Of a DNA stretch of 64,000 nt, positions 2,031 through 64,000 are shown one piece after another. Every line of letters starts with the position of its first letter. The first letter of the stretch is position 1. Origin of the DNA: Phoronis australis (lineage: Eukaryota; Animalia; Phoronida); NCBI GenBank assembly GCA_002633005.1, contig NMRA01000357.1, positions 386,341 through 450,340 on the forward strand, given 5' to 3'. Position numbers and translations under genes: made by a program. The notes below the pieces were generated by a model, which was given only the letters and a program-made list of their open reading frames with translations, searched no databases and was not told where the DNA came from.

Positions 2031-2684
2031 GTTGACTGACTAGTAAATGAAAGCGAACGACGACGGAACTTAACACAACCGAGGTAGAACAATGACTGAC
2101 TCGGCAGCTCTCACAGTCAGACTATATGAAAAGAAATTGGCGCGAAATGCTTGCCTCCTAAAACGTCACTTCCGGAGTAGCGAACGAGTAATCAATAAAA
2201 TTACGAAAAGCTGTAATTAAGTGGAAAATATGTCTAAGATAACTAACCAACCTTATTTTAGCTCAAAATGACGTGGAAAAAGGTTGCCTTCGCCTTTAAC
2301 CTAAAACATGTTTGTGTCTTCTCCGAATCCGCGGTAGACCCATTAGCCCTCAAAGCACAGCAGGTGCATTTAGTTGGTCAACAGTTGAACACAAATTATT
2401 GTTTTGCCTTGGGATTGATTTTTCATTTTCCTTCCTGGTGGCAGTTAAGTTTTAATTTGAATTGTGAATTGTTATGAAGACATCCAAAACTTTGAAAAGC
2501 TGAGTGTGACGTCATAAATTATCCTCGTCACACATGGCTCAGAAATGTGAACTGTCTCATTTTTCGAAAACTTACTCAATCATACAAAGGGTTTTCCGGC
2601 CAGCGTTGCATTTGTACCGATATATTGATTCCATAATAGTTTCACATTGAGAACAGGATTGAGCGAATCCTTTGTCTGTTCCAG

Positions 2685-17946: not shown

Positions 17947-17953
17947 TATAAAA
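17947..17953 (+). promoter_or_regulatory. TATA box of gene 2
   Basis: TATAAAA 75 nt upstream of the signal-peptide ATG at 18022. Confidence 0.55.
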
Positions 17954-18021
17954 CATTCGGCGTTGAACAGTTTTTCATCCTTGTTTTTGTGCTGTTGTGC
18001 CGAGCTGTGCAGCGCATAGTC

Positions 18022-20739
18022 ATGGATTCCGTGCTTGTTGCCATTGTTTGGGCGTTGATCATTCACTGTGTCGGATCAATGCCAGTAAAGAGCCCATCAT
18101 GTGTTGTCGATGAATCAGTTTTTCAGCTGGAATTCGAAAGGGAGAAGGTATAGTTTATTATTGTTGGAATCATGGATGGTTCTTTGATAACATTGTTACG
18201 AAAAGACTTTTGTTGAAGGCCAGTGTTCCGTGCCAGTACCATTAGAGAATTTCTTAGAAACAGTTCTTTCTTTGAAGGTTTGCCTAAATGTTCATTGTGC
18301 TGGGTATGACGAGGAATTTGTAATTTCTTGAACTCAATTTGTTCAATAATGAAAAGACCAATACAAGTTTATGATAACTTTGGCTCTTGACCATCTATTA
18401 ACACTGCGAACGTAAGCATTTTTGAATTAGGTAAAAGTTTATTCTCACTTTTTGCGTTGTCCCAATTAATAAGGAGCACGACAATATTTTACAACGTTTC
18501 AGAATCCGAATTGCTTGTATATTCACAAGCATTTTGAGACAAAAGTCAAGTAGTAGATTAATTCCATTCGTTGTAAAATTGGCCTGCTCGTTTTCTTACA
18601 GTTCATAAAATTCTCTAATGAGTCTGTTCCGGATTAACACTAGGAACTCCTTGCCTTGAAAATTTACAGTACAGTGTTATCATTCGATCATAGCGAGACA
18701 AATTAGTTTACGCTTTGCACGTACATCAACCAAAATTTAGAACCCCATACATAAGGGAAAACTTAGTTAATACTGCTCTTCATTAAATTATTGCCATGTA
18801 GTCCCATTGCTGCCCTGATGAACAACTCAGCCACGTGCAATCAATTACCCTTTTATTACAGAAGGTTAAATAAGAAATTGCATTTCCCCTCATGTTGGTT
18901 ATGTTGTTCGTACGTTATTGAATTTTATTTGGTCTTAAGTTACGCAATACTTTGGTCTGCCCTAACTCACTCATCAGTTGGCGCCAAGTAAAGTACCTGA
19001 CATAGTGATTTCTTAACATGTGTCTCTGTTTGTTTTTTTACCACTTGACGAGAACAAAATCGATTGTTGCTCCAATGCGTTTTTCCAGATCAATGGCAGA
19101 TGGTTCATCGACCATGGGGCGAACATGACTAGTGCGGGGAAGTGGAGAGCGGAGTCCTTCGTTCTTGACGCCAACGGAACGGTTCATTTCTTCAACCGTG
19201 AAGGACACCTGTAATTTAACTTCTTATCGTTCTTTAACATTTCCACGTGATTATGCAAAATATCCGAGACTAACTTCGGGCGTTTTGACAAGTTTAAATT
19301 GATCAAACATTTATAAATCAAAGTAAGCAATAGACCAGTGATACATTTGCGTGACGGTCTATACCGCCCATGTTTATCGAATATTCAAACTATAGTCATT
19401 TTATTGGGCCACAAGATGTCTGTGTGTATTTTATCACATGCCTTTACAGCAGGACTATGCGCTTGTACATTTACAAACGAAACAATAGATTTTCACAGCT
19501 GCATTTTGCCCTGTTTAGCTAGCTGTAGAACAAGAATAGAATTAGGCTTTCTCACATATTCTTCTTCATCGTGATAGGATTATATTTCCGTTACCAAAAA
19601 CTACATCGAAACATCCGAATTCAAAAATGTCGCATCTACACATTGTCTGTGACTTGATTTACCAGCTCATTCGAAAACAACGCAACAACGGAGGAGCGCG
19701 GTGACGTTTTTCAACGCCAAGCGGTTTGGTTATGAACTAAACATTGTCAGCTAAATAGCTGTGAAATGCAGCATTTCTCTCAAGTATTTGCCCGCATCTT
19801 TGCATGTGTCTCGTCATTTGTTAGAATTTTTCAGTTCAAATGATAACTTTAATTTTAGTACACTTCAAATGTTCCACTTTACAACGAACAAGTTAAGCCT
19901 TGCTCCCATGTGTTTATGTTTTTTCCTGGGTTTCTCTGCATGTTTCGAACAGAGGGCCAATCACGTAATTCAGGATGTAGGATTTACGTTCATGTATAGG
20001 GGCACATGCTTAAATATGCACTTATTTATTTACAGTATACGGAATTTTCTCCTCACTATCTTTTATGGTATCTAATTATGAGTCTTTTTAATTTAGTTAA
20101 GTCGCATTTCGCTAGTATTACGTGCGAGACAAATCGATTTGCTTTACAGTGACGTAGAAGGGACTTTGGATCATCATAACGACAGACCGCCGTCCGAGTT
20201 CGTCTACCACGATGATACACATTCAAGTACGCTCTTACTATAAAAAGAATTGAATTAAAATGCCAACTTATTGTTGTTCTTAATTTAAAATTATGTACGG
20301 CAGGAAGAACTACTTTTTATACGCGTGATGAATTGTTCAGTGTATCCTGTTTCAAAGCCGCAGTAAGTGACTGTCGGACATACTGTAGATGGGAATATAA
20401 TTCAATTAGTTGGGATCGAATTTCTATTCTCAGCCTGGTCATATACATTTATCCGTCCTGCAGTCCAAGTCACCCACCAGCTGAAGGATCACAAAAATCC
20501 ACATAATTATACTGAATATAATTGCTAAAAATGCGTTACCGTTTCAGCCGTAATCCGCGTAGTTGTCACGGACTATAACACCGCCATAATTTACGAAAAG
20601 CTCATCTCAGAGACTGACGACTTGGGCACTGTCGGCGACTCGCAGATTTATTATCTGAGCAGGAGGCGACATCTTACGGATGAACAAAGGCGCAAACTGT
20701 ATGACAACGATTTACAAACGGCCTTATGTCTTCACCAAG
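18022..20739 (+). CDS. Gene 2 signal peptide + lipocalin domain 1
   Basis: Exons 18022-18147, 19089-19210 (INGRWF..GKWRAE), 20150-20226 (..YHDDTHS), 20548-20739 (VVTDYNTAIIYE..YYLSR..LCLHQ). Confidence 0.88.
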
Positions 20740-23700
20740 GTATCCATTGGACTAATTTAGCCACGTGCGCATAATAGTTTAAAGCAAGACCATTTACACT
20801 GAAGTTCAGCGCCTACACAAATCAATATTTGAATAAGAGCGAGGTGCTGCCGCAAAAATTCTGCTCATGGGATCAAAACCGACACCCTATACTCTGGCGT
20901 ATCGTAAGTTCATACTTTTCAAAAAATACGACTCTGGTGGTGCGACCTGCGTTCATATTAGACCCTTCGAAAAACAGCCCCCATGGTTGCACATTACTGT
21001 ATGGATATAGAAAATGTGAATCTTTGAATATTTCAGCTTTCTGTTAGAACCATAAGTGAGTCCAGCAAAATCTTTAACAAGAGAAAGTAGTAAGCAGACG
21101 TGATAGTTGTGAAAGCACTGTGGTAAGATAAATATATTTGGGGCCAGTTTTACTGAAAATATGCAGCACCGGGTTTGCACCAATTTGTTGTCGACCGTCT
21201 TTAATACAACTGCAATTCCGACCAATGGTAAAACTGGCCCCATGCACATTGGCAGCATATTACATGGAATTTAAGACTGGCCTACTACATAACGCGTGAA
21301 TTAGTGATGTAATTTTTGTTTTCAGAAAAATCGTGCGATGTGCAGTCTTTTCCTGTCCAAGAAAATTTTGATATGACAAAGGTAATGCTTCAAACTTGAA
21401 AATTCGGGGGTTTACATGGATGAACCTAAGTAAATTACAGGTTCATACTAGAAAAATATGTCTTTAAATAGTATCGACAGACATGAAGCAAAAGGGCGAA
21501 AGCTTATGGCACACACTTTCGCTTAAAATTTTCAAAACATCAAGATTGGTTGTTGCCACCCTGTGAAGCGTACATGTACTTGCAGATAAATCTATCGAAA
21601 ACCAATCAGATGTCTTAGCCGGTTGACCCAGCGGAACCAGAAGTCAGCTAAGTGAACCAAATGTGAAGCACCGACCATTTCTCTAATCTTCCCCTCTGAC
21701 TCTGGAGATGCAAAAGGCTTAGATTCGCGTTTTTTGTGGTGATGGCTTTCACCTTTTTGTGGACGCTTTTGTTGTGGCCTGCGACAGAGATAAAAAAGGA
21801 CCCCCGCCACTAGACCTTTTGCAGATTTCCATAGCAGACAAATTGGAGAAAATCACCATCTTGTTACATGATCTCGCACATGATCCATAGCCCTCGAAGT
21901 GGAAAACCAGCATGAAATCTTACAAATCTTAGGCAAATTCCCTGCCTGTGCAGTAGCAGGTTAGCACCATGACACCACGAGATGTGAGGCAAAAGTGCAC
22001 CTTGTTTCTTATCTCTCCAAAGGTATATCTAAGACTCGGGTCCTTCAACGTAAGAGTTAAACAATGTTATTTGTGGAGGATGGCTTATCCAAAAACCCGG
22101 TGTCAAAGACATGAAGTCTCAGGTCACAGTTATTATTTGAGGACCGAGCAAGGTTATCCGCTCTCGCGTCCAACCGGACGCCAGCAAATCAAAAACATCT
22201 ACCTATCTTTTCAATGAACGTGAAATCTGATAATTTTATTACTTTAGATTACAGATGTTGGCAAGTGGTTCATAGTCCAGGAGGGAAATGTGACTGGGAA
22301 ATGGAGGGCTGATCACGTTGTTTTCACCCCTGATGAAAATGGAGAGATTCAGGTGTCATTCCACGATGGGGGAATAACAAACACAAAGCACGCTGTGAAA
22401 ATATCAAGAGACAAACATAGGTAGATACTGCATGAAGCTAAACAGAAACATGTGGACTTGTATTATCTATGCAAAGTGCGTCATCGATTTATCAAGTACA
22501 CAATTCATCAATTGCTTAAACGATGACTTGGTTTAAGACGGTTTCCGACTTTAACATGATACTAAACTATGTTTTGTTCAAGTTTACCCTCAACATATTG
22601 CCACTTGTTATTGTGCAATCTCTACGACACTTTTTCGTTGTGTCTTGCAGAGTGATCTCGCATGTCGTTCGAGGTAGTTGTTTTCAACAGCCCTCTATTC
22701 GTTTGGCCATATAAAGCAATAGCCAAGCTTGGACATTACATAGTCTGTATGCAGTTTCTATTGTCATCGAACCTTTTGAAAGTTTTTTATCGTACGTAAC
22801 AGAGCAGTGTTTTGTTTCAAAGGGTCAAATAATCGTACTAATCTTTCTAAAAACACTACAGTCTGCAAATCCAGTATTCCGAAGTGGTTCATGTCATGAA
22901 ATTAAATGTGCAAATGTGAGATGTGTGTATGTGCAATGATGTAGGGTGATAGTGAAGTACAACGTGCATGAGAGGCAATAATGTTTAACATGAGAGGAGG
23001 GCTCTCTGGAAGTGGCATCTACGTGTAGTGGTACTAATGGAGGGATACAAAATGGTATTGGGAATGGCGATGGTGTGATGGACAATTTTATAGAATATAG
23101 AAAGTTTGCAAAAGTAGCGGCGGATTTCGAGGGGTTTGCCAGTTTAATGATTCGGTCATTTCAGTGAGGAGGTATAGTGTTATCTATTGATGGTCAATCT
23201 TGCAACTTGTCGTTGCACCATTTCAATCCTACGAGTCAGTGCTTTTGTGTGAGGTGACCATACTCTTGAACAGTAACCTAGTTTTGGTCGGACTAGAACG
23301 GCATAAGCTATTTCCTTGAGTAGTGTAACGAATGTGTCTTCTACGACAGTCAATGTCTTTACTGGCCGAACCAGCGATTATAACAATAAGTGAATTCCAG
23401 AGGAGATTGTTGGAAATAGTAATGCCAACATTTTAAGCCTCAGACAGAGGTGACAGGTGTGGGCAATGGAGAAAATGGTCTTGGAGGATGGGTTTCTTTT
23501 CCGATGCACGTGACGCATATTTCACTTTGATGCATTGAACTACAAACCGAACACTGATTCTCAATCATCAAATTTGTTAAAAAACGGTTGGAGTGAGAAG
23601 CAGGGTCGTCTTGGGTCTGGATGAAGCGATAAAGTGTACAGTCTTCTGCAATGAGGGGATAATGTACATGTAAGATATCTTTTGAGGCAGGTCATTGATA

Positions 23701-26700
23701 AAGAGGAGGAAGATGACTGGTCCATAGTTAGATCCCTGAGCAGCCCCACAGGGCACAGGGGGGGTTGTCAGATGAGTTGTCCTCTAACAAAAGACACTGA
23801 ATTACATTGTTGAGAAAGGAGGCATCCCAGTTCTTTGTGAGGACGCCAACCACAAAGAAACCATTTGTGTTAACAAGTCCAGAGCGAGATATTTTGTAGA
23901 AAGCTTTACTATCATACTTAGTGACGTCATCGAACTGCATGCCTGAGTTTATATTGAGAAGGAGGTCGTTTGCGAAAGTGAGGAGTTGTGACTTACATGA
24001 AATGTTTGGTTTCAAGATGTTTCATACATGGTGACTCACTGTGACGTGTTCAAGAATCTTGCAGCATGTACATGTAAGGAATATTGGGCTGTAACTTTTG
24101 CTTTGCGTTTTTTTTTCCTTTTTTGAAGACTGGGGCGAGGTTGGCGTGGTGCCAATCCGCTAGAACCACACCAGATAATAGTTAGGCATTAAAGATATCA
24201 GTCAGTAAGGGAGCTATTGGGTTTGATTGTTCCCGGAGAACAAAGTGTTTGGACTTCGGGGTTTGTGTGGGTTCTGAATGGGAAGTTGTTTTTCAACTTC
24301 ATTGATATCATGTGCGCACCCAGGAGGCAAAAAGGTCCACCCCAGAGAAACAAAAAGTCCCAGGGAAACGAGACGAAAGTCTACAAAAAGGCGCAGACAC
24401 ACAGTTCACAGTACTGAAGATGGTACCCCGTTTTTTGTTTAGTCATCCAACTTTTGTGTTAACAAAATGTCCACTTGGTCAGAATTCGACTCCCCCCAAA
24501 CTAAAAGCTGGCTGCGCGCATGGATATCAATGGAGTGGTTTTATAAGGACTTTCATGTAGGTCTGGAGTTATAGAGCTGTCTTCAGTAGTGAAGACTGAG
24601 CAAGATTGATTATTGGAAATTTTTGCTCTGTCGGATGGCTAGGTGGAAAGTCGGCCGTTGTTTTGCAACGGGGCCAACTGAGAAGGCTCTCGCCTGGGAC
24701 TCTTAAAAAATGTAAAAAGACACTTGGGATCGCTCTTATCTTAAGGGTTGATAATGCTATTGGCGTATTTTCATTTGCTGCTAAGGTTTTGTACTTAATG
24801 GGATACTATGTGAGTACCATTGTTTGGGTTGTAATTTATTTTGTTTTGGCTCCAGTTACATGTTCATACATACACGTAGGTCTGCATAATACGACGAATA
24901 GACAATTAGCTTACCAAGGGGTAAGTCGCCGGAAGATCTCTTTGGTCACTATTTTAGGCACATCGATGGAAACATTAAAGAAGATTCTCAGCCAGGGGAT
25001 TATGTGTACATGGACAAGTATCACTCTAGTAAGTTGACGCGTGTAGACTCGCAGCTAGCACAGGCCTTAACGGCATAATGAACGATCCTGAGCGTCGCAA
25101 GGGGGCGCCAGGGGTACAATCATGATTCCAGAAAAAGAAGTGCATGCGGCAAGCCCCTGTATTAACACTTTAGGGTAACACGAGAGGAAGCCCGGTTTCA
25201 TTATTCTGACCCTGAATAACCTTACGCCGTGTTATGAAACTGGTCGAAACTCGCGTTAGGTTATTTTGAACAATTTTCATGCTCACTACGTAGCAAATTC
25301 CAATCCTATACATTCGCTTATGCATTACCATCAATACGTAAACTAGGTCATCCGTCAGGTTCTCTGCATAAACTAGGTCGGCGCTTCAAACAGTCCGCCT
25401 GCATCAAGCTCAAGGAAGATTTTAGTAGCCCAAAAATACCACAAGTTCAAAGATATTCAATTAAAAAGGAAAGACGAAACATAACTCTGAAGATACCTGG
25501 CCAATATCAAGGGTCACCGCTTGTAAGCAAGTCAAGGCGATCCTTATCTCGCACTACCAGTCGACTAGTTTTCCCTAATGCAACAGAAAATTCTCATACA
25601 CTTACTTAACTTGTGATGACTCCTTTCAATTTGAAACCACCCACAATGCACTAAAACAAACTAATATTAAGTGCAAAACCTTTTTATACTCTCAAATGAT
25701 TATTCTGAAAATAGTTGCATTGGTTTCCTTACTTTTAAAGTGTATGCCTTCGACACCGATAGGCTCAAGCGTTAATTTACAGCTGAACGCCGTAGGCCGT
25801 GCTCAGTAATCAAAATGGTACATATAAGATAAACAGTTAGAATTATGCTGGTGTGAAATTTGTCAGTGATTTAACCAAAAACTTCGAATTAGCTCGACCC
25901 ACTGATGATAGTATGTGGAATTCAAATACACACACAACTGAATGTTAGTCATTTTTCAACCCTTTTTGGTCACCACTTTTCTCAATGGATTTCAAAGAAT
26001 ATATGCGTATAATGTTGATTATACTCCCATCTATAGGCGCTATCGGAAATCCCGTCAACCTCTTCGAAGCATTGGCCGTTCAAAGTACGGCACTTCCCGG
26101 ACCTCAGAGGGCTTTGATTGGATGTTTTGCGTGCAAAAGCGATTGAACTTTGACCATCACATTGACACCATACAATTCCGCTCAGTGTTCATAAAGTTTT
26201 GATGCGAATTTGGTTAAGGCCTTGTGAATGACATTTTGCTATCGGCAAATGAGGTCGGGTCAACAAGCAACACGTACATAAGGTCATTTTCTGTGAAGGG
26301 AGGAATTTTCACGCATGCGCAAATAGCTGGTTTATGGATTTCTGGCAATTGTTTAATTTACAGAAAATGGTGATGATAATACATTAATGCAGTTTTAAGC
26401 AAACGGGTGACGTCTGTGTTTGTTTCGATGAAGATGCAAAAATAAATACGATAATTATTTCGCATTACATGAAAGCTGTACTCATATTTAGTTAAATGTT
26501 TTCATCTAAATCAAATATTTGGGTGCGTCCACCAAAAGAATGCACACATTACAAACAGTGAACGGAGTATTGTACAGACGGTCATGATCTGGTAGTTAAG
26601 AAGTGGGTCCTTTTGTTTTCAAACACATGAATGCACCCAAGTCAGAAACCACTTTTCCTAACATATTTTCTTTTATTTTTGCAGCGCAAATGCGATTCAT

Positions 26701-29700
26701 CTGGACGGACTACGAAACAGCGTTGGTGTACGAGAAATTGTTGTCGGAAAAGTCAGGCGAACACAAGATCGGTAGTGCGGCCGTTTATTGGATAAGCAAG
26801 ATTACGGAACTGTCAAACGGAAGCATTCATGCAATTGAAGGGCCCACGGAAGAATTGTACAAATTCCTTTGCATTGACGACAAAGGTATGGAAAACACAA
26901 TAAGAGGACCCAATATATATGCTATCTGACGCACGATACCACCGAATGAAAGCTAGTTTGATCACGTTAGACATGCTCCACAAGGTTGTTAAACCGTGGA
27001 ACACAATTTTGCCAAAATATTAATCTCGTACCTGTGGTGATTGCGAGGACTGAATGAAGCAAAATACAGCACCAGTTCCTAACCAAGTTATTTAATAAAA
27101 GAAATCGGCAGCATATGCAAAAATGACAACATTTTCCACTCATTTCGTACTCTCGACGCCATATTGTCGCTGAGTTATACTACCGTAAAATGATGTCGTG
27201 ATTTGTGAAAAGATATAAACGACCTAATTTGTACTTGAATGCCATAGGTTGATTTAGAAACGGAACCGACCCACGAGATCTTCATCTGACAGAACCGGAA
27301 ACAAGCGCTTTGTAGCCAAAAATGGCATTCTTGTCGAAATTAAGTCAAGATTGTAAAGTAATGCTATTGCAACTTACCCAACTAACTGTTTATTTTAAAA
27401 TGCATTGGATTTTTCGGGCAAGTTGTCACAATCTCTACGAAAGGCGTGGAGCAATACCTGTTGAGAATTTGTTTAACTGGAAGTGAAACGTGTTCTAGTC
27501 GAAAAGCAAGAAACAATCGTACACTGTATGTCGTTGTTGCGTCAACGTGAGGACTAGTTAAATGTGCTGATTTATAGGTAGCAATTGGTTACCCATTGCC
27601 TATATTGGGTTGAATGCATGCATTAGTTGTCCTCATGTCGACGACACACGTGTTACCAATAAATCATAACGTAATCTGTAGCAGTATATGATACCAAATT
27701 TTCTATGTGTTTATTGAGACTCACCAGTGTCCTCCTTTACATTTGATCAGACACAGAATGCAACCCCAACGTGACGATGATACAAGAAAACTTTGACATC
27801 GAAAAGGTACGAGAGTTCTCGGGAGAGTGTCTTTGTTTTTAACGTATTAAGGTTTCATTCATACATGTACACATGGTAACATTTCGGAATCAGTGCTGCC
27901 TGCTCTCCCTGAAAAAGATGTTTTGACTAAAAACTCCACAATGTGTTTAACAATTGGCTAAAACATATATCACTTCTACAGGGTGCGACCAGAAAGCAGG
28001 CCCTAAGTTAGAAAAAAATTCACTAAAAATTTCGTTGGATGTCTGCGTTGACTTCTTATGAGCTCCCAAATCAACCAGCACATCTTACAGTGCGCCTACA
28101 GCCAAATGACGTCACCGATGGTGATGGCACCTGATGGCCATTTTGCGCACTTTAAGTACCTCGTAAGACGGCACATAGAATGCTCTTGTGGACTTTGGTT
28201 TATACTGCTAATACACTTTTTGATCACACTTCCTATGTGATGTTTCATAGCAAACCCACATGTGAACCTGGTAGTACTCTGAAACATTGTAGCAGCAAAA
28301 ATAGCCAACAATTCGGAAAATTACAGTATTTTGTTACATAAACCTGGAAGATCTCCACAAAGGATTTGTGATAAGTGTGAAGTACGATGTAGCAGCCAGA
28401 GAAAAAAGTCTTTCTTTAAATGGCGCTTTTCTAATGCATCCATTTCTGTAAAAAAGGAGTTTGGAATTCCATACAAGTCGGAATATTGGATTTGGTTAAA
28501 GATGAATGTTTAACCTATCGATACCAATGTTTTAGTTTATGACGGGTGAAAACTGGTACATTGTCAAAGAAGAAGGCGTACATCGGGTGGGAAAATGGAA
28601 AGCTGACCATGTCTTATTTACCAGGAACGACGAAGGTCTGATAGGCATGTCCTTCCATGACGGCGGTCTTCTGTCAGACGATGACGTTGAGGAAAAGGAA
28701 CACAGGTAAATAAGTAAACTCGACCTTGTACAGTTTTTTTTTCAATTCACTCTGATGAAGTACGTCATATCAGACAACCATGATTAAACAGCGAAATCTG
28801 GCAAGTAAGTTGGAGGCCAGGCTAAACAGCGTATAGACGCAACAAACGCGTAAAACGCAAGATCACGAAATTACTCCAGACACAATGGTACGCATTAGAG
28901 CTGACCAAAATGGTCAAACTAGCGATTTTCACGAGTGACCAGCGTTTAAGGATTAGGTGCCAGTTGCCTTCGATGGCTTACTGTGCGCATGCCCAGAGAA
29001 AGAGAAAGAATACCAGAAAATGTGTCTCATGATTGATTCGTCTGAGTCGGATTGCGTCGTTGTAAAAGGACTGCATATTGCATGTATATAATCGAACCTA
29101 ACTTCTAGACCTTCGCTGAATAATGGGTCCGTATGTTGGCATTCAAAACACCTAGCATGGACATTGACCCTGACAGAAGGTCTTTGCCACGACAAGGGGA
29201 CAGTGAATGAAGACCAGTCGTTCACTCGGTTGTTCTGAGCGACTAATTATGTACCTTTGAGTTAATCAGAGTGGAGTCCAGGGCATCTGTGGCTGGTTGC
29301 ATGAAACAGTCCTAAGTAGGGACTAAACTAAGTTCCCTAAATCTACTGCGTATTTGTGGACTTGGGAAAACACTGTCTGATTGTCCTTTACTATGCTGTT
29401 TTAATTTCATCACTATAAAAATTTTTGGCTTTGATGCAAATCGAGAGTGAACCTCGACCTTGAATTCTCAATATTATTGAAAATGCATAGGGATCTTTAC
29501 GTGCAACATTCTTAACTCGTACGTACAAACATCGTCACCATTTTCCTGTTTCCAGACATATAGATGGACATTTTGCTGTCGGGCAACAGCCAGGAGACTA
29601 CCACTACGTTGACAGTACACACTCAAGTAAGGTTTCATTGCTGTTGCACAACCTAACTTGTTCGTTTCTTCCAACACTCGTGCATGAAGTTGTGTTACCC

Positions 29701-53700: not shown

Positions 53701-56700
53701 GGGCTAGTATATAGCTTACTACACATTCTATCACCCTAAGCTTCGACCGTGAAAATATCGTCTGCTAAAGTAGGTTACCCCACTGCAGAATGCTGAATGT
53801 TAACCAAATCCCCTTTTGTCCACTGACGTCATATGCATGCTGGCACCCTCCAAGGGAGGTTGGGAGACTTTGCACTGGTAGCCTGCCCTTGTAGAATCTG
53901 CAGTTTATTTACACAACTGGTAACTGGACTCTTGAGGGTGATGACTGACATCATTTGTATCAAACAAAGATACTTAGTCCGGTCCCTTAGCAGCCAAAAA
54001 CCCCAAAACATTTACACCCCGGATTAAAGCACCAAATTTGGTACACAGATACTTTGGGACACGCTGAATCTCATGGGGGTCGGTTGCCCGAAATTTGAGG
54101 TCAAGGTCAAGGTCAAATCAAGGTCAAAGGTCATGTGGGTAATTTTTTTGAAATGGCTTCAGACGAAGTATCTGTTTCATTACTGTTTCAGGTGATAAGC
54201 AGGAGGCTTTATTTTTGGTTAAAATTAATGTTAATAACTTGTAAAAATAAGTTGAAAGTAAAAAAGTAATTTTCCAGACACTTAAGATGGTAATTATCCT
54301 AATTAATAGAGCATATACATTTTCAATGAAAAATAAGTCTATTTGTTTTCTCTGGCTGAGAAAAACTGTCAAACTAGTATGAATATGCATTAAATCAACT
54401 CTAAAATGGTTTACCTTTAACAGAAGTTCATTTTTAAATGTTTTTGTTACAATATTTATGGTTAATTATGTAACAAATCGTCTCCGTAATTAAAGGAAAT
54501 CGGACATCTTGCTAAATTTTCAAATAACAATTGCTGAAACTTTTATCATCATTTTTAATTTGATCATAGCTGAAGGTAACTTTGTTAATTAATGTGTTTA
54601 CATTTTAGTTTGAACTTGATTGTCACATAAACTAAACCAATTAAAGTAATTTAGGTCATTGATGGTTTCCAGTAGAATGAAATAAAAAAGTCAGGTTTTA
54701 CTTGGTGTATCACAATAAGGTGAAGCCCTTGTTGCACTATACTTTAAAACAGGTCCAGGCATAATGATTGTCTTGAGGAACATGTCCATTTTTAAGGTTT
54801 GTGTCCATCCAGTTAGTTGTGTTGACAAATTATGTAACAAGTGAAGCTGACCCTTGCTCATCCAGACAACAGTACCCAAGCAGGTGACCTCAGGTCTGAG
54901 ACTCGCATGATGTTGACCTCCAGTTCATTGCTCTTGTACTATTATATTTTGATTGAGGTTTACTAATTTAGGTATGTACTTTTTTGAGTAACTATGTACA
55001 TAAAAATATCCTAAATTGATTTAACTTATTGGAGATAATCATATCGCGTTTGGTGGTGATAGACCGACCCAAAAAACCTCGCCTCATTTTCGAATAGGTG
55101 GAAATTCCTGAGAAAACCACAAACCTTTGAGTAAAATGCGATTTCACGCCTATACACATTAACTCTATTCCGATACATTTGCTTGTATGCCAGGCCACGG
55201 ACAGTGCTGTTCTTGAATGGAATTATTTACGGATTTTTAGGCAAACCTTTGGCAAATGCGACTCGACTTAGAATGAACAAAAACATACCGTTTTAGTCGA
55301 CATAACTTTCAATATTTTAATATGAAAAACAAAATAACCGAATGCTCGGCCGCATTCAACTCACAGGCAGCAGACGTCTTATCACTGCCGTAAATCATGA
55401 GAAGCTCAAAAGTAAGTTTTACACAACCTCTGCATACTAAGTATCGTGGCCATTCGCAGTAGGCCCCATTACCCGCGGACGCAGGACTCAGTTCAGACAC
55501 TCAACTGAGCAAAAATTATTTATCATGCCGCAACCTCAGAATTCACTTTGTAACATACCACAAAAGCATTTTTCTTAATTCTTAGATTTTGAGGATTGAC
55601 GAAAGTCACGATACATAGAATTATCCAAGTCTATATGTGACTCGTCTGATGTTACTTGGTCCGTACTGATAGGCTAAATCAGTGGTTAACTCGGTTTACG
55701 AGTTCTCATGACCTCCACTGGGGGCGCCAGCATGCGTGTGACGTCAGTGGACAAAAGGGAATTTGGCCAACATTCACCATTCTGCACTGCTTACTGAGTA
55801 CAGTGCCCAAGTCAAAGGATCCCGCCGACACGATACCCGCAAGTGAGAGAAAAGGAGAGACAAATTGGATTGAATTAATGTATGGTTTTTATAGCGTATA
55901 CATGTAAGTGTCGGTACAATGCCCTTTGTTGAACATGTGATTATTGCGTGTGCTCAATTATAACTATTCTATTTTCGCGTTAGATGACGTCAGCGGCTGA
56001 GTGGTGCAGTTAAGTCTTGGGAAGCAGGTTCGAAACCGGCCGCGGTTTCCCGCCAAAATGTTTTCTACTGTAACGCCGTTTAATAACTGAGTGGGTCATT
56101 ACACTGTTGTATTGGCCATTCGAGGCTGGTATTGTGGTATAAAAACGTTTTTATACTCCGCTACACAAATCTCGTAATGTAAGAAGCCACATTAAAAAAT
56201 CGACCTACCGTAATCGTCAGACCAGGTCGACTGGTCGGCCACAAGTTTTTACATTTCAACACCGAAGAGTCGCTAGGACTATGAGACAGTTTCCCTATCC
56301 TGTGCAGGTCCCTAAGCTGTACTTGTAGCCCTGATCAATCGATAAACCGGGATCTGTTTACCACAAGATTACCCGAGGTGTTCCAGGTGCCTCAATGTTG
56401 TTAAATTGGGAGAAATGACAGAGCGATACATCATTGCTTACGCCTTGTTACGTGGGGATAGTCATCTAGAACCTCATAGCATTAGGGTTGAGGAGATTGA
56501 CAACGGCAAACTCTCCAGAAGAGGCGTAACTTTGCTTCGTGCTCAGTTCTTTTGAATAATATATTGTTTGAAGTAGGCGTCACCAGATGCCAAGTACTGC
56601 GCGTGTTGACTGTGACACGTGATACGGATAACTCAACTCCTTGCTATATATACCATGTATGGTTCACTTTCAGAAAAATGTGTTGTTAATCAGCGAGTGG

Positions 56701-59700
56701 CCCCAAACTTTGACATTCACAAGGTAAGACGTAGTGTATTCATTTCCCGGCCGCCCATGTTGGACATAAGACTATTAGATCCCAAAAATCATTATTGGTT
56801 ATGGTCTCTCTCCCGACTAATGGTGACACCTGCGCTCACCAACTAAAAATAAAAAACGCCCGTCCGCCTCAGATTTGTTTGTTTTTTGTTCATAAAGCTG
56901 CAAAAACGTATTTAAGGAAGGATACGCAATGTTTGAAAAATCAAGAATTTGCTAAGCGATGAGTCAAGAAAGCAGAACCCGCATCATCTTTGTTGGTCTC
57001 AGTTGGATTTTCGTGTTTGAAAAAGGGCGCCTAAATATTCCACCGCCTCGATTTTTAAAAATAGCAAGGACAAGAATCAACTATTTTTTGCTCTCCGACC
57101 ACTAGAAACATTCTTCTATTCGTCGATATTTGAGTGTAAAACATTTTGATCTCAGCCCCATTTCCAAGGAATGACTGTGAAAACAATAAGTCACACATCT
57201 TGATCAACTTTGCAGAATATGTGCGCAATTGTCCGGCAAGAACTTTGTTGTTTTTTTGTGAAATCAGCACACAACAGGCTTAGACTGTTGATTTTGTTTA
57301 CGATTATTGAAATTCTTATATGTCTGACATTAATTCTAAATTTGAACTTCTAAACAACACTAAATATACATGTATCCAACACAGATTTCCAAATAGGGAT
57401 CACTCAGTTTTTGTGCAGTGACACCCAGACAAGAAAACGTGAAACAATCATTGGACATTAATAGTATGGGAGTCTTCCCATTATTACTGAACTACGTACG
57501 ACTATTTTTTTTGGTTTGATCACACTAAACTTTTTATTGCGGTGCCTAAATAAGTGAAGAAAGTTGGTTTTTTTATTTCACCCATATCTGTGTAAGAAAT
57601 CTTCTTGTACAAGACTTTCGGCGACAGAAATCGCTGTCTATGACAGCCTTGTTTGAAATATAAATTGTTAACTTTCCTTTCGCGCGACAGAACGTAAAAT
57701 TAATGTGTGTGCACGACCCAGAATTTTTAATTTGCAACTTAATAAATTTAGATGTTACGTTAATTTTAAAAACGAAGAAGACATGTCGTCAACAACAAAT
57801 AATAAAAAAGAATTATATCTTGCGAACCCCAGCTCATGGGTGAGTAAGGTGCATTTGCATTTGCATTTGCTTTTGCAACTGCTTTTGCTTTTGCATACAT
57901 TTACATTTAGGGCAAAGGAAACCCAAAAACATTTAAAGGATGGCGTAGGGTTGCACATATAATCCGCTTCTTCATTTTTCCTTAAGCTTTAAATCAAGAT
58001 TTTGCACGTCTCACTTAAAGCTAATGGGCTCTGCTAGAAGAATTGTGCGTACGCTATTTCACAAACAGCTTATATGGGAAGATTTAAATAAAGCAAATGA
58101 GTTTTTGAATGTTCTAGTTCGTAGGGAAGTGGTACATTGAACAAGAAACGCGCGTGCATGTAGGGAAATGGCGCGCAGATTACCTCGTCATCAAAGAAAC
58201 AGAGCAAGGCGTTGGCATTGAATTTCACGGTGGACCTTTTGATCAGGGACAGTAAGTATTTTGCTGATCGAATCCCAAAGTTAACCAAGATAGTTTTAGT
58301 AAATGATCACGTGAATTTACAAGTACGTTTCAATATTTCTGTTTGTGGTGTACACTGTACGTCCTCGGATTTGGGATGCGAGCAAAATGTGAATTCATTT
58401 AGATTGGTGCACATTTGTAATATTAGTTTTATGCATTGGTTGTTCACACGTGACCAGAAACGAAGATTTGAATGTGTTCCCATAACTCAACATTACAACC
58501 TCTCCAAAACATCATTTTAGCTATGAACATTTTGACAGCCATATACTCGCTCAGCCCTTATCTCACTCGCGTGATTTTGAGCAGTCTTGCGTGATATCCA
58601 TTTTCTTGCAAGAAATCCGAACGCAGCCCAGCACACTCACACAGTCGGCTTTCACATGGTCAAGGCCCAATTTATACCCTAAACCATTTTCCCTGTAGCA
58701 CTCCTCAGTCCCTGACTCCGGCATACTGTCACCCTTACCTTGGTAACAATCAATTGTTACCATGCATACATGTTAAAACTCACGGAGTCCAACTGGTAGC
58801 TAGTACTCTAAGTTTCGTGTCCATCAGGCAGTTGTAACCCTACCATGCGATTAATGTTCGAATCTTCAGTCCGACGCATTTTGAGTCTTGCGCTAGCGGA
58901 CAAAATAATAAAATCTGGCCGGAATTAATTTAACAACCGACACGTCAGCAAGGTTTGAAACGCCATGATTTGCAGAATGATGAATGAAAAAGTCACGTGC
59001 TCTCCTCTCGGGTATGTGTTCGTTTTTTGAAAAGAGCGAACAACGAATATATCCTGCACATATTCGATTTTCAAAAATGCAGACCAGTGTGCTTCTTAAA
59101 CTACTAATTGAAAATTATTTGCAGTTATGTGAAAGGCAATTTAACTGAGCAGTCACAAGCAGTTTTCAAGTACTCAGACGCCTTGCATACAAGTAAGTAA
59201 CATTACGAAGTACAAGCGACATTATGTGCAATGGCTGCTGGGTTTGTACCATATTAGGACTCGCTCCGTAAAACAATCCGTTTATTACCTCTTACAGGAA
59301 CACTGTCGCTTCTTCGGGTGAAAACGCATCTTTGTGATCATTGTTGGCAAGGATAGACTTCTTGAGGTTATGAGCATTGAGCAGAACTATAACTCAACAA
59401 CATTGTGTTTCGTGATTATACTACAAATCTCACATTCTCGCCACCTACATGTATTCGTTGAAATCAAGCCCGGAGTTTTTACCAACTGAACACACTTTTA
59501 CTGTTTGTTAAACATGATAAAACATGCCTTTGGCGGCATTTACAGTTCATGTTTGGATTGGGGCTAAGATCTGCCTGCAGAGCTATAGTCTGCCACCATG
59601 TGGATACCTTGTTCGATTCCTCGCTGAGTGATATCTCAGAAATGTATTTTTCTTGCCCATAATGTCCCTTTGAAGGTACACGTTTGTTAAATTATATTTT

Positions 59701-62700
59701 CACTATTTCCAGCTCATTTCCGCGTCGTGTGGACTACCAGTAACCTGACATTGATCTACGAAAGCCTCATAAGCTCTCATGATAGACTTGGTAGCCATGG
59801 GAATTCGGACGCCTACTTCCTTCATAGGCACCCGAAACTGTCGGCAAAAGAGCTTCAGTTGATGAACGAGTCATGGGTGGACATCATATCAATGTTTTGT
59901 TTAACTAAATACCAACACATTCCTAAGGAAGGTGAGCCAGGTGAAGGTCCCTGGACCTGTGCTACGATCAATTAATATAGTTAGCTTTTAAGTTTGAACT
60001 CAAACATTAACCTTGTCACCTCTGACAAGGCATAACGAGAACTTTTGGAATGTATTGGAATTAACGTACCCCTGGGTGGAAAGTTCTAAAAAAATTTAAA
60101 ATTTCCTGTACAGTCCACCGTATCATCACCATCATTATGTCTGCATACAGCACCAGAATTACAGAAAGTGCATCATTCTAAATCACAGGGAGCGGTGAGT
60201 CAGCAAGCAGCGGTGATGGCAGCGGTGAAACCGGACCCAGCTTTAGTAGTGGTGACGTCAGCAGTGGCGAGCTGGACAGTAGCGCATCTGTTGAAGGAAG
60301 TGGCGTCGGTAGCGGTGATGTGGGCAGTGGTAGCGTTCATAGACTGACAGGTAGGAATTTAAAATAGAACTTAGCAAAATTGGTTCTTATTCTGGTTCTT
60401 CCTCCCCACTTATTTGGATACCTGCGCTTACGGACTAAAATCCTCCAATTCATCAATTTCTGATAAAGTCTTGTTTTTTGTCTGAAAATATGCAAAAAAT
60501 CACGAAAACAGGGATCAGCTAGGTTTGCAACTCCATGATTTGTCAATTAATAATTTAAAAATATCGAATACCGCGTGGGTCTTTTTACTATTAAAATATC
60601 ACACCAATCGATTTTCCGAAAAGAAGAGAACAAAACCACTTCTGCACCTTTCGGACTAACCCTGTGTTTTGCATAAAAACGGTTTCATCAGAATTAGCGC
60701 AACCTAACACTAGTTACAGTGTAACTAAAACGCTACCTCACCATATTAAACAAGAGCAACACGGAGCGTTGAAATGCACCCACGAATGCACCGCTAACGC
60801 TGTGCTTCTAGAGGTGTTTATTTGGAACATAAAAATGGCAACTGGAGGGCGCAAAATATGTCGAATCCATTCAAGAACTTGTATGTGTCATCAAAGCTAT
60901 TAATCAATTTTCATGAAAATCCGTCAAGGAACTTTTGAGGAAACAGAGGAAAATGAAAAAATGAAATTGTCACCAAGAGGCACCAAAGTAGATAAAGCAG
61001 GAAAATAATCGACAGACTTCCTCTTGCCATTAGGAACATAAATGTCTCTTTCCACAACCATCCTTCGAGTAGTTTGATTGACAGAGGGGCAGACGGCAAA
61101 TAACAAGACTCCAGAACAGTAAAAATGGCCACAACATGGCGCAAAATGCCCCGAATTTTACCGAAAACCGGATGATAGCGTCACCTCATTAATAGATGCC
61201 TAACTGCCAAATTTTATCAAAATCTATTGGCGACCCTTTAAGATAGAGAGGTAAACGTAAAAAATTAAATTGCTACTATGGGGCACACGGGTAGCCCGAT
61301 CTGTCCGAAAGTCGCCATCCTCTGTTGTCAACTACATATAAATACATTAGCAAAATTCAATAAAGATTCTATAGAGCATTTAGGAGATACAAACAAAACT
61401 GCCACCAGGAGGCGCCAAAGTATTCCAAGTCATCGGAAAAGCATCGTCAGCCGCCCTCTTCACAGTAAGAACATATATGCCAATTTTCAAATCATCCCTA
61501 GAGCGAAAACAGTAAAAATGGCCACTAGGTGGCGTAAAGTACCCCGAATACGTCCGAAAACGGGAGGATGGCATCATCTCGCTAATAGATGTGTAACTGC
61601 CAAGTTTTATGAAAATCCGTTGAGGACCTCCAAATCTACAGAGGTAAGCGTAAAAATTAAAATTGCCACTAAGGGACACACCAGTTGTCGGAGAGGTTTG
61701 TTGTCATCAATTGCCACCTTCATGGGAACACATCTGCCAAATCTCATTACGATCTTGTGAGGGGTTTAGGAGATAAAGCCATGGGCTCAAAAACAAACAA
61801 AACTGCCACTAGGAGCCAACACAGTTGTCGAAGTCGACGGAAAATCACCTCAGTCGCCCTCTTCACCTTAAGAACATATATGCCCATTTTCAAATCATCC
61901 CTAGAGCGGTTTGCTTGATATAACGATAAACGCCAAAAACAGACTCGAAAACAGCAAAAATTGCCACTACGTGACGCAAAGTACCTCGAATCCGTCAGAA
62001 AACGGGAGGATGGAATCATCTCACTAATAGATACCTATCTGCCAAAATTTATGAAAATCCGTTGAGGACATCCGAAGATACAGAGGTAAGCGTAAAAAGT
62101 TAAAATTGCCCCTGCGGGCTACACCGATTGTCCGAGAGGTCCGAAATCCGTCGTCGTCAGTCGTCAGCTTCACAGGAACACATCTGCCAAATCTCATCAA
62201 CACCCTGTGAGGGGTTTAGGAGATACAGCTGCGGACGCCGGACCACGGACGCCGGACGACGGACGCCCAGACAGAGATGGCGGAAACATGCAACCACATA
62301 TAAATATGTGGGCGCATAAAAATAAATTATTTCAGTGGTTCGAAGTGTTCGTTATAGTGTTCATGAACTGGCGTCAAGCGATATAGTAACGCATGCCGAC
62401 TTGCCAAATTTGTGAGAATTCTACACTTTCAGAGAATTCAGGAGACGACTCTACAATGGAGACGTGCACGACGCGACGAGACAGGATAAAAGAGAGAATC
62501 CAGAAGGGCTCTGAATCTGACACTGATGCGCTGGACCAGAACGTCCCTGTCTGTGAACAGGACGGTAGTTACAGTGCCAAGCAGTGTAGAGGTTCTAGGT
62601 AAGAATCTTCAGCCGGTTCATGTTCGACAAATGTGACCACGCGTCCGCAAAGCTCCTTTATTGTGTTTGAAAGGAGAGTGGGGTTGGCGAAACAGATTAT

Positions 62701-64000
62701 TTAAATTTCACGACGTAACAATGGAAAGATAAACATGTATAAAGTATCTGGTAAAGCATTTATCTCAAATTGGCATAAACTGCTTCACTTAGATGACATA
62801 ACGAAGACAAAAGGGATCGCGTCACAATTGCTTCGGCTGACTAATGGTTTATTTTGGTTTGGTTATATAGTTCAGAGTGATAGAAACGGAAGTGCCAACG
62901 TTGCCTGGCTACCACGAAGGGCCTTATTTTGGACATGGCACAATTTGTGGTTTTCGTGTACAGTGTAGGAGACCTACATATTCGTTGCGACAGATCTGGA
63001 AATAAGTTTGTAGGGCAGCTTTCTCTCAGTCATTGACACTTCATATCACCATGAAGAATTTGCTGTATTCTCAGATTGTATGCTCATACTGTATTACACG
63101 TCGTGTATATTCAGGTGCTTCTGTGTGAGTCCAGATGGCAAAGAGATCGAGAACTTCCTTGGAGTCGATAGGCGGAGCTCTGACCATCTCACATGTGGTA
63201 TGGCCACTGCTTTATGTATTGTAAAATGAAAAAGTTTAGAAGCTTATCTGGGCTGCCACTCATGAACGGCTGGCATATAGCGCACATGTATGTTACAAGT
63301 GAATGTTGTGCACGATTTTCTTTTTGCAAAATCTCCCGCTTTGCACACGTGCAGAAAGCCAAGACATGCCGACCATTTTGCATAAACTGCGTTTACAACT
63401 TTAATATTTCGTGTCAGTGTTACTTAAACTTTCGCGGAAAAGCTTTACTCGACTTTCGCAATGCTTTGTATTCAATCCATCACTCTTGTCGTGTTTTCTG
63501 CAACAGGTTGTGCCAGGGAACACTACTCACAAATGACGGCTGGTAATGACCATCCAACCGTACACTGCGACAATGTAGGAAATTATCATCAGGTTCAGTG
63601 TAAGGAGGGGGCGTGCTTTTGTGCAGACCCGAGCAGTGGCGCGCCAGTCGAAGGCACTCAACTTCCAGAAGCGGAAAAGAAGAAACTGGAAGTAAAATGC
63701 GTTATGGAGAAAAAGCGTAAGTGAAAGAAAAATAATTAGTGTGATTAATCCGATCAAAGCAAAATAATTCAGAACTGTGTGCGATGAGATCTTTAATAAA
63801 GTTTAAAAAATTAAAAAATCGATTTCCCGAGTATACTTGTTCACTGCTGTTGCTGCTCTGCGTTGTAAAAAGCAATAAATTGGCATGACCGGAGAGACGG
63901 TAGAGGATTATCATTATTCTGTGAAATTACAAAATTGTAACTATTAAAATCATATTCCTAATCACTAGTTCCATCTTAATTTCAGAAACAATGATGCCCT
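18022..64000 (+). CDS. Gene 2: secreted protein with 8 tandem lipocalin domains + Ser-Gly GAG region + 2x thyroglobulin type-1 domains (3' end beyond window)
   Basis: 38 GT-AG exons join in one open frame (~4564 nt in window). Signal peptide MDSVLVAIVWALIIHCVGS. Eight 4-exon units carry GxW, WTDY-like and LSR/IHR lipocalin motifs. Then SG exon 60189-60350, Tg-1 exons 62433-62598, 63115-63197, 63507-63716, and a further exon starting at 63986. Confidence 0.9.
21326..26885 (+). CDS. Gene 2 lipocalin domain 2
   Basis: Exons 21326-21381 (KSCDVQSFPVQENFDMTK, ApoD/RBP-like N-terminus), 22248-22420 (VGKWF..GKWRADH), 24958-25028 (HIDG..YMDKYHS), 26685-26885 (FIWTDYETALVYE..LCIDDK). Confidence 0.88.
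22950..24200 (-). mobile_element. Degraded CR1/jockey-group LINE reverse-transcriptase fragment
   Basis: Minus-strand frameshifted motifs: LTCTCCKILEH, SCKSQLLTFANDL..DSKAF (cf. SCETQL..DFSKAFD) and GAAQGSNYGPVIFLLFINDLP (cf. [21 protein letters not shown]). Confidence 0.8.
27751..30160 (+). CDS. Gene 2 lipocalin domain 3
   Basis: Exons 27751-27806 (ECNPNVTMIQENFDIEK), 28536-28705 (GENWY..VGKWKADH), 29556-29626 (HIDG..YVDSTHS), 29951-30160 (FVWTDYSSALVYE..LCLKRP). Confidence 0.88.
30490..30537 (+). CDS. Gene 2 48-nt linker micro-exon between domains 3 and 4
   Basis: ttttttcag acceptor and G|gtaagg donor, phase 1-1. Encodes QKSNGHQVPTLETSNT. Confidence 0.65.
30723..41872 (+). CDS. Gene 2 lipocalin domain 4 (first intron contains nested transposons)
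   Basis: Exons 30723-30772 (KCNASNQVAGNFTMHK), 39457-39590 (FVGRWY..GKWRADH), 39834-39901 (..YSDDTHS), 41654-41872 (VVWTDYNTALVYE..FIHR..LCLT). Confidence 0.88.
31344..31448. mobile_element. Short PIF/Harbinger-like MITE
   Basis: Inverted ends GGCTCCATTTCATGAAA...TTGTGAAATGGGGAC, flanked by CAG on both sides. Similar ends occur near 12436 and 16998. Confidence 0.45.
33728..37208 (+). mobile_element. Sola3 DNA transposon, degraded, nested in the Academ ORF
   Basis: TTAA TSD (33724-33727, 37209-37212). TIR GAGACAGTCCATATAAAAACCA...TGGTTTTTATATGGAGTCACTT, with long arms. Transposase relic SGNAGCYHS...RYDFSESQNGKDLCDRKIAPLK (34863-35228). Confidence 0.85.
34863..35228 (+). pseudogene. Sola3 DDD transposase fragment
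   Basis: S(D>G)NAGCYH and RYDFS..QxGKxxCDR motifs. Flanking frameshifts and stops. Confidence 0.75.
40620..40854 (-). mobile_element. tRNA-derived SINE
   Basis: Minus strand reads GAGGCAGTGTGGCCTAGTGTG (A box)...GGTCGTGGGTTCGAGTCCCACTGGGTCAC (B box), followed by a non-tRNA body (ACCCTTGAGTCAG...). No clean cloverleaf. Confidence 0.7.
42096..44600 (+). CDS. Gene 2 lipocalin domain 5
   Basis: Exons 42096-42145, 42410-42543 (FTGKWYIYH..HVGKWRADH), 43463-43530 (..YSDSTHT), 44382-44600 (ILWTNYNFGLLYER..LIHR..MCLT). Confidence 0.88.
43880..44134. mobile_element. hAT-like MITE (CATGCGCGCACCCAG TIR family)
   Basis: Inverted ends CATGCGCGCACCCAG...CTGGGTGCGCCCAT. A relative lies at 47194-47448, and related ends occur near 14578 and 24515. 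Confidence 0.6.
45750..45770 (+). pseudogene. Truncated duplicate of a lipocalin N-terminal exon
   Basis: gacactcagtcttgtctttttctttag|AAACGTGCAAACCAA mirrors gacacttgtcttgtattttag|AAATATGCAAACCAA at 46299, but lacks the rest of the exon and its donor. Confidence 0.5.
46299..48358 (+). CDS. Gene 2 lipocalin domain 6
   Basis: Exons 46299-46348, 46472-46605 (FTGKWYIHQGTHLHVGKWRAE), 46824-46891 (..YSDESHS), 48140-48358 (IVWTDYNFALIYER..FIHR..LCLT). Confidence 0.88.
47194..47448. mobile_element. hAT-like MITE (same family as 43880-44134, opposite orientation)
   Basis: CATGCCCGCACCGGGGG...GGCTGAGGGCGCCCATG. Shares the GAGCCCCC/GGGGCTC and CATTTGGCGAAGTGG motifs with the 43880 copy. Confidence 0.55.
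49620..51773 (+). CDS. Gene 2 lipocalin domain 7
   Basis: Exons 49620-49669, 49963-50096 (FTGKWYITHEKHVHVGKWRSDH), 50767-50834 (..YSDGTHS), 51555-51773 (VVWTDYNIALVYER..FIHK..LCLT). Confidence 0.88.
53985..54937 (+). mobile_element. Helentron/HINE-like non-autonomous repeat (approximate)
   Basis: CACCAAATTTGGTACACAG and a (GGTCAA)n run at ~54099-54133. 3' end GACCTC...GCTCTTGT resembles the end of the 60750-62320 element. Confidence 0.4.
55985..56050 (+). mobile_element. tRNA-derived SINE head / tRNA-like relic
   Basis: A box GGCTGAGTGG and B box GGTTCGAAACC, but spacing too short for an intact tRNA. Confidence 0.45.
56674..59931 (+). CDS. Gene 2 lipocalin domain 8
   Basis: Exons 56674-56723 (KCVVNQRVAPNFDIHK), 58118-58251 (FVGKWY..HVGKWRAD), 59125-59192 (..YSDALHT), 59713-59931 (VVWTTSNLTLIYE..FLHR..FCLT). 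Confidence 0.88.
57850..57908 (+). repeat. Degenerate (TTTGCA)n microsatellite
   Basis: GCATTTGCATTTGCATTTGCTTTTGCAACTGCTTTTGCTTTTGCATACATTTACATTT. Confidence 0.75.
60189..60350 (+). CDS. Gene 2 exon: Ser-Gly-rich putative glycosaminoglycan attachment region
   Basis: Phase 1-1 exon GSGESASSGDGSGETGPSFSSGDVSSGELDSSASVEGSGVGSGDVGSGSVHRLT (8 SG). Not present in the ORF track. Confidence 0.8.
60750..62320 (-). mobile_element. Helentron-associated (HINE/DINE-1-like) element with internal tandem array
   Basis: Subterminal inverted repeat ATGCACCCAC (60774) / GTGGGCGCAT (62308), hairpin CCACATATAAATATGTGG, and (CGGA)-type microsatellite at 62231-62266. One end is ACAAGAG and both flanks are A-rich. 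Internal repeat units start at ~60831, 61121, 61515 and 61957. Confidence 0.75.
62433..63716 (+). CDS. Gene 2 exons for two thyroglobulin type-1 domains
   Basis: 62433-62598 (TC..PVCEQDGSYSAKQC), 63115-63197 (CFCVSPDG..C), 63507-63716 (CAR..HCDNVGNYHQVQCKEGACFCADPSSGAPVEGT..C). Exon-by-exon paralogous to gene 1. Confidence 0.88.

Follow-up and report, generated by a model that had tools for sequence, protein, structure and literature searches.

In a 64,000-nucleotide stretch of the Phoronis australis genome (GenBank assembly GCA_002633005.1, contig NMRA01000357.1, positions 386,341 to 450,340 of the forward strand; called the window below), we found one spliced, expressed gene of at least 38 exons, running on the plus strand from position 18022 to the window edge at 64000. 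It encodes, in this order, a likely signal peptide, eight units homologous to lipocalins, a Ser-Gly-rich segment and two thyroglobulin type-1 (Tg-1) domains. The product is probably secreted and kept in matrix or mucus, where it would act as a multivalent sponge for ligands, in line with the multivalent extracellular carrier proposed in the initial annotation of this DNA.

A single gene with a repeated exon cassette

Exons were positioned by splice signals within 2000-64000. As the initial annotation had proposed, 38 exons join in one frame; with GT..AG introns throughout, they add up to 4564 nt, i.e., 1521 codons with zero stops, the frame running open up to the window edge. Intron phases 0,2,1,1 are repeated eight times, with one additional phase-1 linker exon after unit 3, and each unit is thus a symmetric phase-1 four-exon cassette. 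RNA from four runs with the same species label (X1 to X4), with 18-19% of every raw run used, was mapped on 17900-31000 and 44001-64000. The features of the gene are as follows.

17947-17953, plus strand: TATA-like box, from the sequence
17994, plus strand: pile of RNA 5' ends (11 and 16 molecules in X1 and X2), 47 nt after the start of the TATA-like box
18022-18147, 19089-19210, 20150-20226, 20548-20739, plus strand: start codon, likely signal peptide and unit 1; joints in RNA; 30.5 bits
21326-21381, 22248-22420, 24958-25028, 26685-26885, plus strand: unit 2; joints in RNA; 36.1 bits
27751-27806, 28536-28705, 29556-29626, 29951-30160, plus strand: unit 3; joints in RNA; 20.7 bits
30490-30537, plus strand: linker exon of 16 codons, separating unit 3 from unit 4; both joints in RNA
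30723-30772, 39457-39590, 39834-39901, 41654-41872, plus strand: unit 4; first intron of 8.7 kb bridged by loose-end reads; 39.4 bits
42096-42145, 42410-42543, 43463-43530, 44382-44600, plus strand: unit 5; last exon covered by RNA and joined to unit 6; 24.3 bits
46299-46348, 46472-46605, 46824-46891, 48140-48358, plus strand: unit 6; joints in RNA; 38.7 bits
49620-49669, 49963-50096, 50767-50834, 51555-51773, plus strand: unit 7; joints in RNA; 38.2 bits
56674-56723, 58118-58251, 59125-59192, 59713-59931, plus strand: unit 8; joints in RNA; 26.0 bits
60189-60350, plus strand: Ser-Gly/acidic exon with predicted glycosaminoglycan attachment; three E/D-G-S-G sites, including one across the 5' joint
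62433-62598, 63115-63197, plus strand: Tg-1 domain 1, six Cys; PF00086, 27.9 bits, E 1.6e-6
63507-63716, plus strand: Tg-1 domain 2, six Cys; PF00086, 35.9 bits, E 5.1e-9
63986-64000, plus strand: start of exon 38, in frame after an AG acceptor and cut by the window edge

Thirty of the 37 exon joints were supported by reads or by a transcript-like contig, among them all 13 within exons E1-E14 and all 16 within E21-E37, mostly with 30-120 reads in X1 and in X2 each. The long first intron of unit 4 is bridged by loose-end reads (90 and 84) that leave 30772 and whose 30-letter consensus is the start of E15 (39457), 8.7 kb downstream. Support for E10>E11 is thin: X3 gave 2 reads and a second joint table 3 and 11, and the X4 contig contains the joint as well. 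Among the joints listed, E27>28 and E34>35 were seen in the X4 contig alone and E21>22 solely in the second table, and E37>E38, of which the window holds 15 nt of E38, was absent. First mates map to the minus strand, consistent with plus-strand RNA in most stranded libraries. RNA covers the last exons to a depth of about 105-166 in X1 and X2, whereas reads are far fewer in X3.

These joints, which include six of the seven from unit to unit, establish a single spliced gene and argue that the units are not separate genes. A tandem cluster of single-domain lipocalin genes could appeal to the joint between units 4 and 5, which lies outside the RNA-mapped regions, and to the lack of any single record across the whole gene. 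However, the six unit-to-unit joints carry tens of reads each, a single 2393-nt RNA contig spans unit 6 through both Tg-1 domains, and there is just one signal-like segment, leaving this alternative next to no probability.

Strongly hydrophobic 19-residue windows are confined to residues 1-30, and residues 1 to about 19 are likely a signal peptide, as judged from their hydrophobicity. The encoded protein, of about 171 kDa or more, is likely secreted. By analogy with the upstream paralog described below, exon 38 is likely a short terminal tail. A stop directly after 63716 was considered and rejected, since the depth of the last bin equals that of exon 37 alone, arguing against read-through.

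Many exonic sites in 18022-51773, densely placed in exons 8, 10, 27 and 28, carry fixed differences between the window and runs X1 and X2, which reflect either high allelic divergence or a distinct population. From the rows displayed (40 of 909 and 40 of 138), 51 exonic sites in 44 codons were used, of which 19 codons changed silently and 25 changed the residue; selection on the gene is purifying but loose. A joint in the X4 contig (depth 142) leads from 28704 backwards to 24958, and depth in exons 7-10 rises to 323, versus 100 and 194 in their neighbors. As this back-joint spans exactly one in-frame unit, it represents an allele with nine units, a circular RNA formed by back-splicing or an artefact of assembly. 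The acceptor and 5' end of exon 22 are partially duplicated at 45751-45770, and the X1/X2 allele of this exon shares its first five letters with the duplicate.

Lipocalin homology and the predicted pocket

In a reverse test against a lipocalin profile from sea urchin and acorn worm, whose template proteins are Pfam PF00061/PF08212 proteins, all eight units reached 20.7-39.4 bits, whereas none of the 693 decoys that were scored, out of 808, exceeded 7.8, and HHalign comparison of the units with this profile gave 98.4% over 140 columns. Units 4-8 have the length of 157 residues initially given for all (about 156-157), and units 1-3 depart from it (148-168). Pairwise identity among the eight is 31-62%. 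A six-frame profile scan of the window, long introns included, revealed no ninth unit inside the gene and matched elsewhere only the upstream paralog. Sixteen lipocalin-unit exons scanned singly gave no match to the Pfam lipocalin families, and the lipocalin assignment thus rests on profile homology. Of 1.84 billion proteins, the exon-d profile retrieved four at E<=0.001, all of them poly-lipocalins, one as judged from profile scoring, and the whole-unit profile matched these proteins end to end, with sequence E-values down to 3e-58. Sea urchin lipocalin domains in turn match RBP4 (6e-19), sandercyanin and ApoD.

We take GxW, TDY and an Arg to be the lipocalin motifs of structurally conserved regions SCR1, SCR2 and SCR3, respectively. 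The W is present in 8/8 units and the G in 7/8, TDY is exact in 6/8, and the third motif is Arg in five units and Lys in three (SCRs as named in PMC4532494); 34 positions are conserved in seven or eight of the eight units. The phases 0,2,1 of all eight units agree with the lipocalin intron-phase pattern 0,2,1,1,1 (PMC3184775). A model of the last unit exon has three strands and a helix (pLDDT 81.5). In the VIA structure comparison, lipocalins made up 11 of the 50 listed rows, aligned at their C-terminal half, counting DiB2 and OmCI, which we assume to be lipocalins. Other searches were negative within their scope: Foldseek with the 72-residue model gave no match at E<=0.001, the PDB sequence search with the exon-d profile none at all, and the ESM Atlas no usable match for one exon or for the sea urchin protein; none of 232 pattern matches in metagenome contigs was confirmed, and word-index protein searches with the exon-d and Tg-1 exon alignments returned nothing at their thresholds, a result of little weight, as the species and its near relatives seem to be missing from that database. 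By homology, then, the eight units are strongly diverged lipocalins, as initially annotated, and each would fold as a barrel and bind a ligand.

Among solved structures, RBP4 and ApoD are nearest to the sea urchin domains, and they share the GxW and TDY motifs and the intron phases 0,2,1 with the window units. Unlike our protein, they are single-domain. Each unit has two Cys, the N-terminal one presumably pairing with the Cys after the helix, as in RBP4 and ApoD, whereas the other two disulfides of RBP4 are missing. The inner disulfide motif is found in none of the nine window rows (paralog unit included) versus 16 of 18 urchin domains. Invariant in all eight units are Tyr77, Asp79, His82, Glu100 and Tyr118 (unit-7 numbering) and a G-K-W motif. 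In a register carried from the window through sea urchin to RBP4, Tyr77 and Asp79 correspond to positions 88 and 90, Glu100 to 119 and Tyr118 to 135, all of which we take to be cavity-facing in RBP4. By this register, the two invariant Tyr would point into the cavity together with the Asp of strand E and the Glu of strand G, giving a predicted pocket more acidic than that of RBP4 or ApoD; the G-K-W motif, whose register is unsure, probably belongs to a lid near the pocket mouth. As acids and aromatics predicted in a pocket would suit a polar or cationic ligand, such a ligand appears more likely than a plain lipid.

The conservation of these positions bears on whether the barrels bind anything. 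It is unlikely, in our estimate, that they have lost this capacity and form a structural or adhesive string of beads in mucus or matrix, with the glycosaminoglycan (GAG) segment as a spacer. The extreme divergence and long branch of the units, the loss of two disulfides, the many amino acid differences between alleles and the hint of variation in unit number would fit such a string, but the invariant residues cluster at predicted pocket-lining or capping positions in all eight units despite an identity of 31-62%. A His-rich scavenger of metal, haem or pigment, coordinating its ligand through His, Asp or Glu, is a still more doubtful alternative. His makes up 6.2% of the window units (paralog unit included) versus 1.3-3.6% of homologous domains, His82, Asp79 and Glu100 are invariant, and the sea urchin domains match bilin-binding lipocalins too. 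Nevertheless, only one His is invariant, many others occupy alternating, possibly surface positions, and the paralog unit has neither His82 nor Asp79.

The ligand sponge that we favor would work as follows. The eight units would form ligand pockets that take up or buffer a small molecule in the extracellular space, and the likely GAG-bearing segment and the two Tg-1 domains would hold the protein in mucus, matrix or body fluid. The units arose, apparently within this lineage, by tandem duplication of the four-exon cassette.

The Ser-Gly segment, the Tg-1 domains and a tandem paralog

The SG-rich segment of the initial annotation stood up to shuffling: the Ser-Gly exon has eight SG in 53 residues versus 4.1 in shuffles, 66 of 5000 of which reach eight. 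Its counterpart in a tandem paralog upstream reaches an SG count attained by 0 of 5000 shuffles; enrichment over the segment's own composition is thus modest in the main gene and strong in the paralog. Asp or Glu lies within -3..+2 at all eight SG of the exon. The cluster amounts to nine SG per 60 residues, versus at most three in all 17 proteins compared and at most two in the sea urchin proteins described below. The X4 contig carries a 12-nt in-frame length variant of this exon. E/D-G-S-G is a reported motif of nematode proteoglycan core proteins, although GAG motifs alone are insufficient proof of occupancy (PMC8418075, PMC13405426). The segment likely carries GAG, judging by its motifs.

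Both Tg-1 domains scored above the PF00086 cut-off of 20.6 bits, bearing out their initial assignment. The paralog, which is read in one frame over eight exons with matching phases, comprises the following features.

2685-10879, plus strand: tandem paralog, whole extent
2685-2797, 4516-4583, 5184-5393, plus strand: lipocalin unit (at least one)
7780-7989, plus strand: SG exon, SG repeats with an 18-nt period
8442-8682, 9222-9304, plus strand: antistasin (PF02822, E 2.9e-8) and Tg-1
9846-10049, plus strand: second Tg-1
10749-10879, plus strand: Pro/Lys/Val tail with stop

Its 5' exons were not found within the window. The Tg-1 tails of the two genes are 57% identical. The lack of Asp79 and His82 in the paralog unit suggests a different ligand.

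The tail raises the possibility, improbable in our view, that the protein is a precursor processed into separate lipocalins plus a two-domain thyropin (MEROPS I31) bearing GAG, as a convergent copy of alpha-1-microglobulin/bikunin (AMBP). The inhibitor domains of bikunin are of the Kunitz type. AMBP joins a lipocalin to a chondroitin sulfate-bearing protease inhibitor, and its order of parts (lipocalin, GAG site, inhibitor-type domains) recurs here (PMC8420045, PMC8418075). Such a precursor would also be in keeping with the two six-Cys Tg-1 domains, with the antistasin added in the paralog and with the inhibition of cathepsins by the Tg-1 domains that testican-1, saxiphilin and equistatin contain (PMC10889554). 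Yet the 1521 residues contain no furin-type R-X-K/R-R site, the main gene has no antistasin, and the L1 Gly-x3-Pro seen in saxiphilin and the urchin homologs is degenerate in both Tg-1 domains, Gly being replaced in domain 1 and Pro in domain 2. The L1-loop Gly...Pro has been proposed for protease recognition, as a proposal rather than a proven requirement (PMC10889554). Because of this degeneracy, the cysteine-protease inhibition suggested in the initial annotation is doubtful; by analogy with known Tg-1 inhibitors, it is possible for the pair.

As wholes, AMBP, testican-1 and saxiphilin are functional analogues of the window protein, not homologues. Testican is not known to contain a lipocalin. 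Saxiphilin, unlike the window protein, is transferrin-based. Testican-1 is a proteoglycan with Tg-1, and saxiphilin binds a small toxin and has two Tg-1 domains (PMC10889554).

Related arrays and remaining features of the window

The initial annotation held the architecture to be possibly undescribed. Uncharacterized proteins of about 1300 residues in three sea urchins, present in NCBI/UniRef, qualify this claim: LOC584238 of the sea urchin (XP_030853515.1), LOC121428339 of Lytechinus variegatus and a Diadema setosum counterpart each comprise six lipocalins, antistasin and one Tg-1, with one isoform lacking antistasin. A search with sea urchin residues 590-1276 gave five proteins from 2310 candidates, namely the query itself, its counterparts in Lytechinus and Diadema, and two proteins from moths. 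The LOC584238 protein was detected in a gonad proteome, in one table row of the single paper found to name it (PMC6669438). As in the window gene, tandem lipocalins precede a C-terminal Tg-1, and where local alignment is best the identity is about 19-23%. The window gene differs by its eight units and two Tg-1 domains versus six and one, and by one disulfide per unit versus three RBP4-like ones. Antistasin stands directly before Tg-1 in the urchin proteins and the paralog alike, a shared order that hints at common ancestry. Identity between the tails, however, is just 24-50% in short alignments, and the fusion may be shared by descent or may have arisen by convergence.

Further tandem lipocalin arrays, unnamed in databases, occur in Haliotis (XP_046567489.1 and XP_067662350.1), Owenia fusiformis (CAH1786129.1) and Saccoglossus kowalevskii (LOC100368303), from which 6, 15, 22 and 4 lipocalin domains, respectively, were cut by profile. 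Some are giants: the Owenia protein has 5687 residues (22 domains cut), and Haliotis proteins reach 3267 residues with VWA/Ig (15 cut). The best per-domain scores against the window units, up to 37 bits, came from abalone. Where Pfam-scanned, the Haliotis and Saccoglossus arrays contain Ig/VWA or LDLa modules (LDLa in Saccoglossus) and zero Tg-1 matches, and most retain the inner disulfide. We found no description of marine poly-lipocalins in the full-text literature, a corpus with most subscription journals outside it and without supplements, where proteome tables might be held; a term search of a 2021 lipocalin review gave no occurrence of "domain," "echinoderm" or "mollus" (PMC8420045).

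Polycalin is by definition a protein with multiple lipocalin domains in one chain (PMC10145054), and the lepidopteran one, chlorophyllide A-binding protein, resembles the window protein in this respect. Nevertheless, it matches the profile weakly (E 0.54 and 21), has no SG cluster and, in the one protein scanned, no Tg-1 match. In a quick tree of 94 domains (those under 110 residues or 25 bits excluded), the eight units and the paralog unit (nine rows) group together with an SH-aLRT of 99, set apart by a very long branch (about 2 changes per column); five of six urchin domains, and the moth domains (17 rows), form their own groups. Membership of the window gene in the lepidopteran polycalins was rejected on account of the separate clades and the weak profile E-values. 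From this tree, the arrays look as if they expanded independently in each lineage.

As its core architecture exists in unstudied sea urchin proteins, the main gene is a variant of the polycalin-type multi-lipocalin rather than a new category. Particular to it are its own repeat expansion, the loss of two of three disulfides, the 6% His, the invariant predicted pocket acids and the Ser-Gly segment. Lipocalins have been treated as single-domain carriers, with the moth polycalin as the exception, and this gene led us to tandem arrays of 4-22 lipocalin domains in four marine phyla, apparently expanded separately. Few invertebrate proteoglycan core proteins are known (PMC8418075), and the Ser-Gly segment together with the acidic, His-rich unit makes the product a candidate for such a core protein and a testable natural multivalent binder. 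A more specific version of the sponge, which we consider unlikely as a whole, is that eight acidic-pocket lipocalins, tethered by GAG and varying in number between individuals, trap cationic molecules such as biogenic amines or guanidinium-type algal toxins, in convergence with saxiphilin and AMBP, and represent an overlooked poly-lipocalin class of echinoderms, hemichordates, molluscs and annelids.

Other features of the window include likely mobile DNA. At 599-2299, 172-nt terminal inverted repeats (91%) flank a THAP-domain open reading frame (ORF; 1023-2039, minus strand) and a P2RX7_C-like ORF (877-1332, plus strand), a layout that suggests a likely non-autonomous DNA transposon. The 8.7-kb intron 30773-39456 holds broken ORFs on both strands that resemble nested decayed transposons; six pieces of it gave no Pfam match. 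An intronic repeat at 60676-62330, with three copies spaced roughly 400 nt, attracts many opposite-strand reads with loose ends, which probably come from other genomic copies. Inverted-repeat pairs at 3049-3457 (122-nt arms) and 53781-55789 (68-nt arms) are likely small mobile elements.
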